Of a stretch of 64,000 bases of DNA, positions 8,089 through 49,651 are shown piece after piece. Below the pieces are notes generated by a model. The model worked only from the letters and a program-made list of their open reading frames with translations, did no database searches and had not been told where the DNA came from. The translations under genes and the position numbers were made by a program. Source of the DNA: Sphaerodactylus townsendi (Eukaryota); contig NC_059425.1 in NCBI RefSeq assembly GCF_021028975.2, forward strand, positions 155,682,001 through 155,746,000, written 5' to 3'. Within the stretch, counting starts at the first letter, position 1; each line of letters opens with the position of its first letter.

Positions 8089-8321
8089 CTTGTCTTGCTG
8101 TTACTAGATGTCCCAGTCTTAAGAATACAGGCAAAAAGAACCATCTAGTCTTATTCAGTGACTTATTCATACAAATGAGCAGTTTAATTCGTTGAAGATT
8201 TATTGCAGCCTTTATTTCAAGGGTTTAGACTGAACTAATTTTATATAAGATTGCACTGTGCTGTATTACTAGGCTACAAATCCTGTCTGTAAATATTTCG
8301 GTTTTCTTTTCTTTTTTTCAG

Positions 8322-8580
8322 ATTATTACCATAAGAGACTACATCCCCAAAGTTATTGGTCCAGACGCTTTTAATGAATACATTGGTCCTTATAAAGGTT
8401 ACAGTCACACAGCAGATCCCACCGTAGCCAATGTCTTTTCTACAGCAGCTTTTCGCTTTGCTCACGCTGCAATTCATCCTGTAATAAAGAGACTCAACAC
8501 AGAGTATCAGAATGACCCAAATCTTCCCAACCTTAATTTGCATGAGGTTTTTTTTGCACCCTGGAGACTCATTAAAGAAG
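8322..8580 (+). CDS. TPO: Thyroid peroxidase exon (human exon 9 equivalent; contains proximal heme His)
   Basis: ttttcag|...|gt; 259 bp; IITIRDYIPKVIGPDAFNEYIGPYKGY...AAFRFAHAAIHP...FFAPWRLIKE. Confidence 0.97.
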
Positions 8581-8839
8581 GTACTTTTTGCAGTTTAATT
8601 ACATCTTTTTACATTATTGCAAAGATATTACGAATTGAATTCCTGTCAGATCAGGAAAATTTTCATTTCATAGACATCCAGACTGTCAAACAGGGGCTGG
8701 GACATGCAAAGCTGATGAAAGCATTTTAGAGCATAAATTAAAGTTGAGGTTACATTAAAATACTGAACGAGTTAACTCAAATCTGGTGATTTCTTGGCCC
8801 CACTACTACTGCTACGATTACTATGTCTTTGTTTTTCAG

Positions 8840-9010
8840 GAGGTTTAGACCCCTTGCTAAGGGGGATGTTGGCAACCGCCGCAAAGCTCCAGGTACAGGA
8901 TCAACTGCTGAATGAGGAACTAACTAGGAAGCTCTTTGTATTGTCTAATAATGGTTCACTCGATTTAGCATCACTAGATTTACAACGGGGACGTGATCAT
9001 GGGCTCCCAG
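8840..9010 (+). CDS. TPO: Thyroid peroxidase exon (exon 10 equivalent)
   Basis: tttcag|...|gtatat; 171 bp, phase 1-1; [12 protein letters not shown]...[17 protein letters not shown]. Confidence 0.97.
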
Positions 9011-9194
9011 GTATATTGCCCTTTTAATGTCCTGTGCTGTGAACTGATCCATTACTTCTTAGAATGCAGAGCAAGTAAGTGTATTTAAACCTGTACTGTC
9101 CAAACAGAAGGGCACTTCTGTTCGTGCAAAAAAGGGGGGAACTTCTATAATGTTCAGCTGGAGCTTTCACTCCAAATCCCATTCTATTTTCTGA

Positions 9195-9320
9195 GGCCCC
9201 TTCCGCACACGCAAAATAATGCGTTCTCAAACCACTTTAACAACTGTTTGCAAGTGGATTTTGCCATTCCGCACTGAAAGTAGTTTGAAAGTGCATTATT
9301 CTGCATGTGCGGAATGAGCC
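9195..9320 (-). mobile_element. MITE family H copy (15-bp internal deletion)
   Basis: Reverse complement of the 5221 element; TSD TGA. Confidence 0.85.
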
Positions 9321-10486
9321 TGAGCGTTTCTGACCATAAAGACTGGCTTTTTTACTGCTGCCCAGAGCTGTACTATGAAGTGGATGATGAAACCAAAATT
9401 TGCTGTAGATTTCTTAGGTAATATCAACTATAAGTTATATCAGAATGTAATATTAGTTAATTAACTGGCAGTGAAAATTGTACTTTAAAAGAAATTTAGT
9501 CACTGTGATACATGTTTTCTGTACATGTTTTCAGACCATTTTTCTTTCTCATAGTCTTTTCTCCACTTAGTTGAATCTATCAGTAAGAGACTTCGCTTGA
9601 GTATATGGTATGTGAATAAGGTTGCAGGGTTTCAGGATGCCTTGGTTGCAGGATGCCTTGTTCATTCAGCATGAATCTCATTCTAGACAAGTGACTTGTG
9701 CATGTTTATGCAATAGTAAGTGCCAGTCAATTCAACGGGACTTATTTCCAAGCAAGTATGTTCTGAATCACAAGTTTGTGCAGTCCAGAGAATGCTTAAC
9801 TGGAGATAAGTGACACTGAATTCTGTAGCACTTACTAGGGCTGGGAGTGGGGAATCTGCACCCCAGGCCCTATCCCCAGCCATCAGTCATCACGGCTGCA
9901 GGAGGACTTAGCAGTGGGAGAAACCTAGGTCAGAATCACAGAAACATTGTCAGAAACACTGCAATGTCGCTCCCAGCACCTCATAGGAAGTGATGTCATT
10001 GCATCACTGGTGACACAAGTTGCTGTGGTATGTGGTCAAATACTTTATGATAAACAGCTTCTATTATACAGGTTTTACCCAGATATCACAGTATCTCTGC
10101 ATCACTGGTGATGCAATGCCACCAGTTCTGATGTGTGCCAGAGTGGTGTTGGCACATCGCCAGAGAAATCACTGCAATGCCAGTCTAGACCCCTTCCTCC
10201 ATCTTTTGGTAAGCCCCCCTACACACCAATTACCAGGAGGAAAATGGCAAGCCTAGCACTTATTGATTTGACAGATAAGTGTTCTGAGCTCTTCGGAGGA
10301 GAGGAAGGAAGTCACTATGATAAATGTATCTTTCATGTCATGTCTCAACATTTTAATGTTTGATTTTGATTTTTAAAAAATTATTTTTAACCTGCCCTTT
10401 TCTGATTATGTCAGGCTCAACATACAATATTAGTATTGGTATAATAGTATTCAGAACAACAAACCCTAACAACAATCATCAGGGCC

Positions 10487-10781: not shown

Positions 10782-11019
10782 GTTACAATGAATGGCGAGA
10801 ATTCTGTGACTTGCCAAGAGTAACAACAGAAACTGACCTGGCAATAGCAATAGAGAACAAGAACGTTGCTAAAACAATCATGGAATTATATGGCAACCCC
10901 AACAACATTGATGTCTGGCTAGGCGGTATAGTTGAAAACCTTTTACCAGGTGCCAGAACAGGCCCATTGTTTGCTTGTATCATTGGAAAACAGATGAAAG
11001 CACTAAGAGAGGGTGACCG
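10782..11019 (+). CDS. TPO: Thyroid peroxidase exon (exon 11 equivalent)
   Basis: tgtag|...|gtaagt; 238 bp; [12 protein letters not shown]...NIDVWLGG...[20 protein letters not shown]. Confidence 0.97.
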
Positions 11020-13094: not shown

Positions 13095-13303
13095 ATTTTG
13101 GTGGGAAAACAGCAATGTTTTTACAGCTTCTCAAAGAAATGAACTCAGCAAATATTCTTTATCCAGACTGATCTGTGGCAATACAAATCTCACTGCATTA
13201 CCCCTTGATGCTTTCATGCTTGGAAAGTTTCCTGAAGATTTTAAGAGTTGTGAAAATATACCCAACATTGATTTAGGAGCTTGGCGGGAAACCCTTCAGC
13301 CAG
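13095..13303 (+). CDS. TPO: Thyroid peroxidase exon (exon 12 equivalent)
   Basis: ctacag|...|gtaact; 209 bp; [30 protein letters not shown]...DLGAWRE. Confidence 0.97.
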
Positions 13304-15319: not shown

Positions 15320-15490
15320 AGTTTACTTGTGGTCTACCAAAAAGAGTAGAGAATGGTGAATTTGTACACTGCACAGAGGCAGGAATATCCAAGGTGACCT
15401 ACTCATGTTATCAAGGATACAAACTACAAGGAGAAGCACAATTATCTTGCACAAAGAAGAGGTGGAATATGGATCTACCAGTCTGTCAAG
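15320..15490 (+). CDS. TPO: Thyroid peroxidase exon (exon 13 equivalent; CCP/sushi domain)
   Basis: ttctag|...|gtactt; 171 bp; TCGLPKRVENGEFVHC...YSCYQGYKLQGEAQLSC...W...PVC. Confidence 0.96.
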
Positions 15491-21909: not shown

Positions 21910-22041
21910 ATATCAATGAATGTGAAAACAAAACCAATCCTCCTTGCCACACCTCTGCCAGATGTGTGAACACCAAAGGCAGTTTCCAGTGTTTCTGTAC
22001 AGATCCTTATGAACTGACTGAAGATGGACTAGCATGTACTG
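21910..22041 (+). CDS. TPO: Thyroid peroxidase exon (exon 14 equivalent; Ca-binding EGF domain)
   Basis: atatag|...|gtaaga; 132 bp; [44 protein letters not shown]. Confidence 0.97.
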
Positions 22042-28091: not shown

Positions 28092-28191
28092 ATTCGGGAA
28101 GGCTTCCCAAAAGCTCTGTAGTTGCCATCATTTTAGGCATTATTTTGTGTTGTTGTTTGGCAGCGGCAAGCTGGTTCATCATTTGCCAGTG
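28092..28191 (+). CDS. TPO: Thyroid peroxidase exon (exon 15 equivalent; transmembrane helix)
   Basis: tttcag|...|gtaagt; 100 bp; DSGRLPKSSVVAIILGIILCCCLAAASWFIICQ(W). Confidence 0.96.
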
Positions 28192-42813: not shown

Positions 42814-45800
42814 ATTATAAATAAATAAATAAAATCTTGAGGCTTAAATTGCATGTGGGCAACTGGGGCTGAATAAAGTGTGATTCTTGGTAAACTTTCC
42901 TACTGATGTCGTCCTTTGTGCCTATGGCTGCATTTCAAGTATTGCTGATCACTACTGCAAGGTGGGAAAAAAATCCCTCAAATTTACTGGGGGAGAGGGG
43001 CTGATAGCATTTTTATCCATAGCAAAACATTCTAATAGCAGTACTAGAAGTATTGAGAGGGGAGAACATATTTTAATGTCATTTTAGCAGGCCCAGTAGC
43101 ACAAAGTTAAGTGTTCAAGGTATTAACAATGCATAAATTGGGGCATGGTTAAATCACATGCAAAGAACACTGTGTTTTTCATGGAGGTGATAAGATAGCA
43201 AAAGTTCAGAAAAAGAGAAAGGGAAAGTCTTGATAGGTGATCCGGATATGACAAGAGCCTGGCAAGGAGATCAAACTGCTTTGATGTCAATATGAAACTG
43301 GAAAGCTGAAAAAAGGGCACTTCTGATCCCTTTAGGGAAGATTCTTTCTTTGGGAAAATGTTGCAGTAAAAGCTGTCACTTAAGGCAGCTAAAATCTTTA
43401 TCTAATCACAAGTGCACCAACTTTTGTTCTATAAAGATCCAGAATGTCTGCTATTTCGGAAGCATAAAAAAATATTGGTTTTGATGCCCTCTTTCTTTTT
43501 AAAAAAAGTCATGCCTCCCTTTTGTCACACACAAACTGATCCTGTGGTCTTAGGACTGACTTCTGTACTTTTGGAGATCAACCATAAAGTCTAAACATTA
43601 AACAATGGTCTGAAGGAACACGAACTATCAACCATAAAGTAGCCTGGGACCAATTTATGCACAAGGCATCTGCTGTGCCATGGAGTCAGATGTGCGTTGC
43701 CACAAGATTTCTTGTACGGACATATTTCCTCAAGCCCCACTTTCACTTTCTAGTCTTCCCGTGGCGAGACCACTTCTAGCATGAATTTAATTTTACTTTG
43801 CAGGCAGAGTTGCCAGTGGGTCCAGCTTTGCTCTGGACTTCTTCCCTCCACCCACAGCCAGCTGACCTAGTCTCACCCCCTTACTCTAGCCCCAGTGCTT
43901 TGCATACCTTCCCCCTCTGCCTCTCTAAATGCTTGTATCAATACATTGATAGGAAAAACAGAAGCTGGGTCTCTTTTTGTCTCCACCCCACCTCCCCTGC
44001 TCTGCTTCTGCCCTCCCTGATCATTGGGAGTGCTTTTTAGACCTTTATTTCAATCAAGACTGTACTTTAAAACAATTTTTCTGGTGGCTGCAGCAGCAGC
44101 AGAGAGAGGGGGAGGGGACTCTAACTGCTGTAGGGTGTTAGCTCTGAAAAATGTGAGGAGACCCCTCTGCAAGCCCTGTGTGAACTGAAGAACCCCAAGG
44201 TAAGCATTCCATGTGTAATGAGCCCAGGTGTAAGTATTGCCCAGATGGGAAACCACCTCGGAGCTTTCTGTAAACTGCAAAATTTCTAGAGGAAGATGGG
44301 ATAATATTTTGAAAATAAAACTTTCATAACTATAAGGTTTAGATTAGAATCACACCGACTTGGGTAATTTCCAAGTAAATATGCATAGGACTGGGCTGTT
44401 AATTAATTTTAAAAAAGGGAGAGGACTTTCAGCTCTACAGTTAATCCTCAATCTGATGCTCAGTAAAACTAAACTGAAAAGAGGAAATCTGCTCAAATTG
44501 TGCTTATATAGCAGCACATTCTTTGGAGGAGAAAAAGGGCATTTGGAAAATACAGTTGTACTAAATTGATTTTGATGTCTTGAGTCACTTGAGATGGCTA
44601 ATACATAAAGGTGAAAGCAGCTGTCATGCTCAAAGTCTGTCTCTGGGACACTGTGATGCACTTTTTGTGTGAATGTGTGGCTAGAGGAGGGAGCATTTTT
44701 AACCTTGCATCTGCTCCAATCCCATCTAATTTGAATACTTTGCATGGCACACTACTCAATGTGTCTCTTTAATGTCTTCCGCTAAGCACGCTCTGCCTGA
44801 TTGAGGCTCATTACATTATTCCACCTGTCAAATAATATGTAATGAAGATAAGTGAGCCTTTCCAGGGATTCAATCTTTTCATTGCCCTGTGGATCGCCTA
44901 AAACTTATTTCATCTCGCAGGTTCAGAGGAAAAAAAACAATGTAACACCTATGTTGAACTAATTTAAATGTTTAGCCTCCTTATCTGAGCAGCATGATCA
45001 ATAGAACAGTTGTCGCAGCAAGACTAGATAGGTAATGCATTGGCAATGCTTTGTTAGCCTTCATACTATTTATTGTACCAAATCCTAGCCTCCTTTTTCA
45101 ACATCTTATACCTTAAAGACAACACATAATTTCTTACTGTTCTAAGACTTCATATCAAATATTTTTAAAATATTTACCTGAAGAGGAGCAATATATAATT
45201 TAAAAAAACACCTTCCAACTTGAATTTGTTTTACATTTTTTGCTATTTTTTGAACTCATAGTTTATTGAGTTTTGTATGCAATTCAGTCCACAGCTTGTC
45301 CACTGTTTTCATAACACATGCTGGGAAAGAGTGTTTTCTGCCTGAGACTCTGGAGCGCCCTACCTCCCAAGGAAGGATATACTGGGCTGGAGAGACCATT
45401 AATTTGACTTTACATAAGGGCCATTTGTGTTTTTAGTAGGACAAACTGCACTAGGAGTTCAACTAATTTATGCATAATACCAGATGGAAGAAACCTATCT
45501 GTTGAAGGACACTGGAAAAACTGCCATGAAACAAATGCATCACAATCAAGCATAACTGTTAAACCAGCTGATAAGGTATGACATGTCTCAAAATGTTGTA
45601 GAATATCATCTAAATGAGCACAAACCTTTTCATTTCCTATAGGCAACTGCAAAATATGCATTCAGAATATAGGAATGAACATATACATAATAATGTTACT
45701 AATTTATTGCCTGATTAGTATAAATGGGTGTTTGGGGCTAAAACTTTGGTTAATGGTGGTTAAGGTGCATGACAAAATAATTGTATTATTCTGTCATGGA

Positions 45801-48993: not shown

Positions 48994-49651
48994 TAAGACA
49001 AGATCTATCACAAAGTTCAAAAATGAGACAGACTACAGCTTGGAAAATATTTTATTTGTGCTAATGTTCAGTCCCAAACTAATTTGGATGAGTAGATGCC
49101 ACTATCACAGGCCAATAACTAAAGTGAAAAGGCTGGTTTGTGGCTGCGCAAAATGAGTGATTAGTCAGCCACTTTGTTTGCAAAAAGCAACAACATTGTC
49201 ATTAAGGTCTTAGCACAGTAACAAAATGCTTTTCGGTGGTTTTGTTTGCAGGGGCCAAATTTAAATGAGAAATTAATGCAATTCTTTATTTTCTTCTTCC
49301 TTTCAGGATTATCACAGTCCCTGCGTTCTACTTTGAATGTGAATTATGACAAAACATTTTAGAAGATAACATCAGTAAACACTTTGGACTAAGAATCAGA
49401 GGGAATTTAAATGAGAACAAATTATCCAATGATATATCTATGCCAGATTAATCTGCCCTTAATTGAAGTGCATCCTTAACTACGTAATCTATCATCATTC
49501 ATTTGCTTAGAACTGCCCAGTTGTGTTCAATAATGTTATGGTTTAATCTGTCAGTGTCATAAAGCCAATCTGCATGTACATCCTCGATTGAGAAATCTCA
49601 TCTTCAACCTCCAAAATGCCAGAAGGTCTTCCTTCCTAGAAGAATCTAGGA

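Follow-up and report, generated by a model that had tools for sequence, protein, structure and literature searches.

The thyroid peroxidase (TPO) of the gecko Sphaerodactylus townsendi carries an aspartate at the position of human Asn579, the partner of the proximal heme histidine. Sequence comparison suggests, with a probability of roughly 0.7, that this TPO is a working peroxidase that has a His-Asp pair in place of His-Asn, and that this pair would be viable only together with a second change at a heme contact. Across vertebrates, the heme site of TPO seems to have been remodelled recurrently and epistatically. The codon concerned, GAT, is found at positions 8977..8979 on the forward strand of the window, by which the whole 64,000-nucleotide stretch analysed is meant. 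It belongs to TPO exon 10 (8840..9010, 171 nt, AG/GT), which also encodes Arg582 and the RGRDHG motif. The frame carrying the codon (8842-9009) was read across a stretch of 17 residues, and the codon lies within a 13-residue motif of this exon. It aligns without gaps with the Asn of the MPO, EPO, and LPO chains of the PDB and with residue 579 of human TPO (P0116), which is the position of MPO Asn421. The claim of the initial annotation that Asp stands in place of the conserved Asn is therefore confirmed by the codon itself and by both alignments.

The window contains nine TPO exons on the forward strand (exons 9-17, 8322-49336), with AG/GT splicing and a single terminal stop, whose translation is identical to residues 455-935 in the RefSeq S. 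townsendi TPO (P0002). Exon 9 (8322..8580, 259 nt) encodes intact equivalents of Arg491 (CGC, 8454..8456; MPO Arg333) and of His494, the proximal heme ligand (CAC, 8463..8465). It also encodes Ala at human Gly493, the heme contact just before the proximal His (GCT, 8460..8462), which is the partner change in this gecko, and Ala at human Thr496 (GCA, 8469..8471), a residue found in 33/33 squamates and 5/48 placentals. Exon 10 is followed by exon 11 (10782..11019, 238 nt), exon 12 with the end of the peroxidase domain (13095..13303, 209 nt), exon 13 with the CCP/sushi domain (15320..15490, 171 nt), exon 14 with the EGF-like domain (21910..22041, 132 nt), exon 15 with the transmembrane segment (28092..28191, 100 nt), exon 16 with the cytoplasmic tail (45440..45575, 136 nt), and the last coding exon with the stop codon (49307..49336).

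The succession of peroxidase domain, CCP, EGF, and transmembrane segments, together with best matches to TPO, supports orthology, and a search of the gecko's own genome returned one TPO locus (68-91% identity), distinct from the MPO/EPX/LPO-like paralogs. With human TPO it shares 79% identity over exon 10, a common exon pattern, the CCP, EGF, and transmembrane parts, and the distal Gln/His/Arg and proximal His/Arg residues; the two differ in that the gecko has Asp579, Ala493, and Ala496, and human TPO has Asn579, Gly493, and Thr496. The features of family 1 chordate peroxidases are present on the distal side (Gln235, His239, and Arg396, in P0002 and other squamates) and on the proximal side (His494 and Arg491); the Asn partner of the proximal His is the one replaced, which leaves orthology unaffected. 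The DUOX-like inactive peroxidase domain is described as having lost the proximal His (PMC4420034), and no such loss is seen here, as shown by the CAC codon at 8463. The ester residue Asp238 is present in this gecko and in 24/32 squamates with data.

Read-derived contigs from other samples carry the same codon. The contig of X3 (another sample, from the best-matching organism) covers 8250-9214 with one difference, at 9086, and keeps GAT, while that of X4 (another, related organism) covers 8250-9196 with five differences, none at 8977-8979; the read check proposed in the initial annotation thus gave GAT, not AAT, at the level of assembled contigs. The X5 contig has 14 differences, and none of the 10 listed falls on the codon. 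All three are Logan contigs, from which rare variants are dropped. In the RNA run X21, 6% of the reads gave a depth of about 1x or less over exons 9-11.

The initial annotation had also described all exons as intact with canonical splice sites. This is valid for the nine exons in the window, but not for exon 8, one of the eight located upstream of it. Exon 8 (L001:802-891, about 18 kb upstream) has 90 nt in frame instead of the conserved 63 nt. The replaced 63 nt encode the Glu399 helix, after the distal Arg, and the RefSeq model P0002 consequently has no Glu399. Pieces of the motif expected here can be read in the two remaining frames, a pattern that a patch rich in indels would produce, and the odd stretch, when compared with the gecko's own genome, matched only itself. 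Exon 8 is intact in 5/5 other geckos, and Glu399 is present in all 31 other squamates covering that position. The aberrant stretch is likely an assembly defect, and it leaves the clade-wide result for Asp579 unaffected.

The distribution of Asp579 was established on a table of 173 chordate TPOs, one sequence per species, drawn from 454 proteins fetched. The homologue searches provided the best 120 of 236, 1052, and 2168 matches, with cluster look-ups added; among the 120 proteins listed in the first search, 101 had Asn and 19 had Asp. Isoforms, fragments, unnamed fragments, and members of a gamma-2-syntrophin cluster were left out, as were additional birds, primates, and other placentals (all with Asn if they contained the motif), and most 50%-cluster representatives were scored separately. 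Teleosts are thinly sampled, with seven ray-finned fishes in the table. Asp579 was found in 46 of the 173 species and Asn579 in the other 127. The Asp579 species comprise 33/33 squamates (geckos, skinks, a cordylid, lacertoids, anguimorphs, iguanians, and snakes), 5/5 diprotodont and 2/2 didelphid marsupials, and 6/6 ranoid frogs. Asn579 was observed in the tuatara, 8 turtles, a crocodile, and 17 birds; in 5 other marsupials, 2 monotremes, and 48 placentals; in 20 other frogs, a salamander, and 3 caecilians; and in a lungfish, the 7 ray-finned fishes, 10 chondrichthyans, 2 cyclostomes, and a tunicate. The idea that Asp may be common among sauropsids therefore applies to all squamates, but to none of the 27 tabulated species of tuatara, turtles, crocodile, and birds.

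Asp is the sole replacement seen at column 579, which is Asn in 94% of the distant family representatives, and seven other conserved Asn columns show Asp in at most a single species. In the gecko's own genome, 5/5 paralogs keep Asn, including two peroxidasin-type genes. The three MPO/EPX/LPO-like paralogs (L002-L004) are located at C2:74.34 Mb and C16:17.78-17.80 Mb of the genome assembly (G000), all with Asn at 579, and the two on C16 lie tail to tail. A peroxidasin-type match was also observed about 60 kb beyond the window, the identity of this neighbour being read from sequence. A free gene tree, built with columns 238, 493, and 579 removed, gave four changes at 579, with the four Asp clades supported at 95-100. 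The history of Asp579 consists of four separate changes, or of three gains and a reversal. The marsupial gene tree did not separate the alternative branchings of the orders, and the informative columns split 4:4:1, with 238 and 579 among the first four; two gains fit as well as one gain followed by a double reversal.

The replacement does not occur alone. All 45 Asp579 TPOs with data have lost Asp238, have Ala in place of Gly493, or show both changes: 24 combine Asp238 with Ala493 (this gecko included), 16 combine a non-Asp residue at 238 with Gly493, and 5 have both changes. The pair Asp238 and Gly493 was thus found in 0/45 Asp579 species vs 104/127 Asn579 species. Ala493 was detected in 30/46 Asp579 species (26/33 squamates, 2/2 didelphids, and 2/6 ranoids) and in 0/127 Asn579 species. 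The seven squamates with Gly493 (six lacertoids and Vipera) are all without Asp238. Among marsupials, Ala238 accompanies Asp579 in 7/7 species and Asp238 accompanies Asn579 in 5/5, while among frogs position 238 is Ser or Ala in 6/6 ranoids and other than Asp in 1/20 of the others.

Asp238 is itself absent from 42/171 species, 21 with Asp579 and 21 with Asn579, being replaced by Ser, Ala, Gly, or Val. These species form 18 clades, corresponding to about 17-18 losses, and 12 of the clades (21 species) have Asn579. The TPOs without Asp238 include those of 8/8 turtles, rabbit, pangolin, two bats, two strepsirrhines, and several rodents, and they are also found in Hyla, zebra shark, and elephant shark. 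Judging from this residue, a single heme ester would be the state of many vertebrate TPOs. Outside the TPO table, 126 distant family representatives were catalytically intact, and both of those with Asp579 are without Asp238; Ala493 occurs with Asn579 in 5 of the 126. These two, P0289 (a hemichordate peroxidasin homologue) and P0295 (an unnamed protein), have Ala or Thr at 238, and P0289 also has Ala493, a triple identical to that of didelphid TPO.

The coupling of 579 with 238 and 493 rests on three to four independent origins. Besides 579 itself, column 238 is the sole one of 594 columns that contrasts in 3/4 sister comparisons. Given the rate of Asp238 loss, the chance of at least three of four shared stems was 8e-4 (strict) or 0.015 (liberal), values that are post hoc, 238 having been noticed among 14 chosen columns and 493 among 36, and that use a species tree typed from recall. 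The Asp579 clades make up 17% of the tree length. A Fisher value computed over species was discarded because it takes no account of their relatedness. In random clade quartets, at least one private column was found in 59/400 and at least three in 3/400. Columns 261 and 319 passed the private-residue scan, and 261 was rejected as hypervariable. Position 319, which adjoins the calcium loop, is Ser, Thr, or Ile in 29/32 squamates, 6/6 ranoids, and 11/11 marsupials with data, and is mostly Gly or Ala elsewhere; Ser is present in 5/5 Asn579 marsupials, and the position is a weak lead, possibly a permissive background change.

A structural rationale for the coupling can be proposed. In MPO and EPO, the Asn amide faces the anionic proximal His and its carbonyl faces an Arg bound to a heme propionate (PMC10679500); this Arg is Arg491 in TPO. 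In the cryo-EM structure of human TPO, the heme is attached covalently to Asp238 and is also in contact with Gly493 (PMC9986399). An Asp at 579 could not donate a hydrogen bond to His494, so that His494 would be neutral and would become the donor, with the carboxylate as its acceptor and as a partner of Arg491 as well. The resulting His-Asp pair would cause a shift in the ligand field of the iron and in how the heme is seated. Either the freeing of the ring-C ester by loss of Asp238 or the repacking caused by the added methyl at 493 would absorb this shift. The heme potential would be lower or otherwise altered, a direction that we infer, and iodide would still be oxidised. The oxidation potentials are 0.78 V for iodide, 1.13 V for bromide, and 1.28 V for chloride (PMC5787809, PMC4182067), and a natural peroxidase with one ester, whose potential is about 0.1 V lower, reaches a rate above 1e8 per M per s with iodide (PMC5787809). 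Unlike its paralogs, TPO can likely afford Asp579 because the oxidation of bromide or chloride would not be needed.

The retention of His239, Arg396, Glu399, Arg491, and His494 in Asp579 lineages argues for function, and the proposal of the initial annotation that the enzyme is naturally retuned survives in this form. However, the change is not private to the gecko: it is clade-wide, recurrent, and coupled to two other heme-contact changes. A bolder version of this reading, which we regard as possible but doubtful, is that TPO has two interchangeable heme designs, and that squamates, ranoids, and most sampled marsupials independently switched to His-Asp through two epistatic routes (loss of the Asp238 link or Gly493Ala) under selected retuning, leading to distinct redox chemistry and a different sensitivity to goitrogens and antithyroid compounds.

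Uncoupled neutral drift would provide another explanation. Under it, the heme pocket of TPO is relaxed, iodide being easy to oxidise, the three changes are independent, and their overlap is due to chance and shared ancestry. Several observations are consistent with drift: Asn to Asp takes one transition, two-thirds of the clades without Asp238 have Asn579, and an independent-pairs test was not significant (median p 0.25-0.5), a test that with three pairs cannot reach significance. In addition, deviation at 88 conserved columns was 1.2% in 44 Asp579 species vs 0.76% in 103 Asn579 tetrapods, the species not being independent; this slight excess fits mild relaxation. However, drift would not be expected to leave the Asp238 and Gly493 pair missing from every Asp579 species and Ala493 missing from every Asn579 species, nor to make both Gly493 groups of squamates coincide with the groups that lost Asp238. 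No such drift to Asp is seen at other conserved Asn columns, and human Gly493Ser causes goitrous hypothyroidism (PMC8432017), so site 493 is not free. This explanation is considered unlikely.

Adaptive retuning, that is, selection for a changed redox behaviour of TPO, overlaps with the preferred reading in mechanism and differs in cause. The candidate gains include less self-inactivation by peroxide, less competition from bromide, thiocyanate, or dietary goitrogens, and an adjustment to low or variable body temperature. The identical replacement was fixed three or four times at a site otherwise almost always Asn in the family, and the lineages concerned are ectotherms or marsupials. However, Asn is kept by other ectotherms (tuatara, turtles, crocodile, 20 other frogs, and caecilians) and by five marsupials, and a shared ecology is not evident. 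Selection as the cause appears rather improbable.

The initial annotation had also considered a hypomorphic enzyme, and decay of TPO in this gecko or in squamates is very unlikely. It could be suspected from the absence of the Glu399 codon in this assembly and from engineered MPO N421D, which was reportedly impaired (Carpena et al. 2009), as judged partly on chloride oxidation. That mutant has the identical substitution at the homologous residue, but it was made in a protein that bears both esters and the sulfonium link and has a Gly preceding the His; unlike it, none of the 45 natural Asp579 TPOs has the Asp238 and Gly493 background. A review states that the activity of MPO depends on Asn421 (PMC6837458). 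A hypomorph private to the gecko is very unlikely because Asp579 is fixed across Squamata and the catalytic set is conserved, with Gln235, His239, Arg396, and Glu399 kept in 31/31 other squamates covering these positions and Arg491, His494, and Arg582 in 33/33. Against decay also stand the single TPO locus, the intact exon 8 of the other geckos, and a level of about one deviation per species at the 88 conserved columns in Asp579 species. Finally, AAT and GAT differ by a single A/G, but a one-base assembly error or a rare allele, both proposed initially, is virtually excluded by GAT in two other samples and Asp in every squamate species.

Other systems share parts of this arrangement. Dictyostelium DdPoxA has no Asp ester, as in the 42 TPOs, and oxidises iodide rapidly at a lower potential; it differs in keeping the His-Asn-Arg triad and is termed unique for its one ester in that source (PMC5787809). 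Enzymes of the peroxidase-catalase superfamily and DyPs also pair the proximal His with a carboxylate, but have unrelated folds and no covalent heme, and the likeness is one of mechanism only (PMC4420034). The vertebrate peroxidasin group Pxd2 has Ile, Asp, or Asn at the Asn421 position (PMC3533774); the site is variable there, whereas in TPO the alternative is Asp only, fixed across clades of an essential enzyme.

In reviews, conservation across chordate peroxidases is ascribed to the proximal His-Asn pair and to both heme esters (PMC4420034, PMC5787809). In a literature search covering few subscription journals, neither Asp579, nor the loss of Asp238 from TPO, nor the evolution of the heme site in squamate or marsupial TPO was the subject of any paper found, and alignments showing Asp579 may exist; PMC10497151 refers to Asn579 solely in the context of docking. 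Against the conserved view, an essential hormone enzyme has had this Asn replaced in whole vertebrate clades, and its ester residue has been dropped repeatedly. Such TPOs would be natural, viable versions of mutants so far only engineered, and they predict second-site rescuing changes, so what the His-Asn pair and the ester links do can be tested directly. The observed diversity also concerns the extrapolation of TPO-inhibitor data across species, as the residue is Asn in Xenopus, birds, and placental mammals but Asp in ranoid frogs and all squamates, and it bears on the interpretation of human variants at 238, 493, and 579.

Further features were observed in the window. A tandem acceptor (tag tag) at 45437-45440, before exon 16, accounts for two RefSeq isoforms one residue apart (P0002 and P0162). 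In intron 10, positions 9194-9326 hold a very high-copy short repeat; the X4 and X5 contigs skip 129 nt within it, which indicates that the copy here is an insertion absent from those organisms. At the start of the window, positions 74-484 on the forward strand contain an open frame that we take to resemble the reverse-transcriptase end of a CR1-type LINE.
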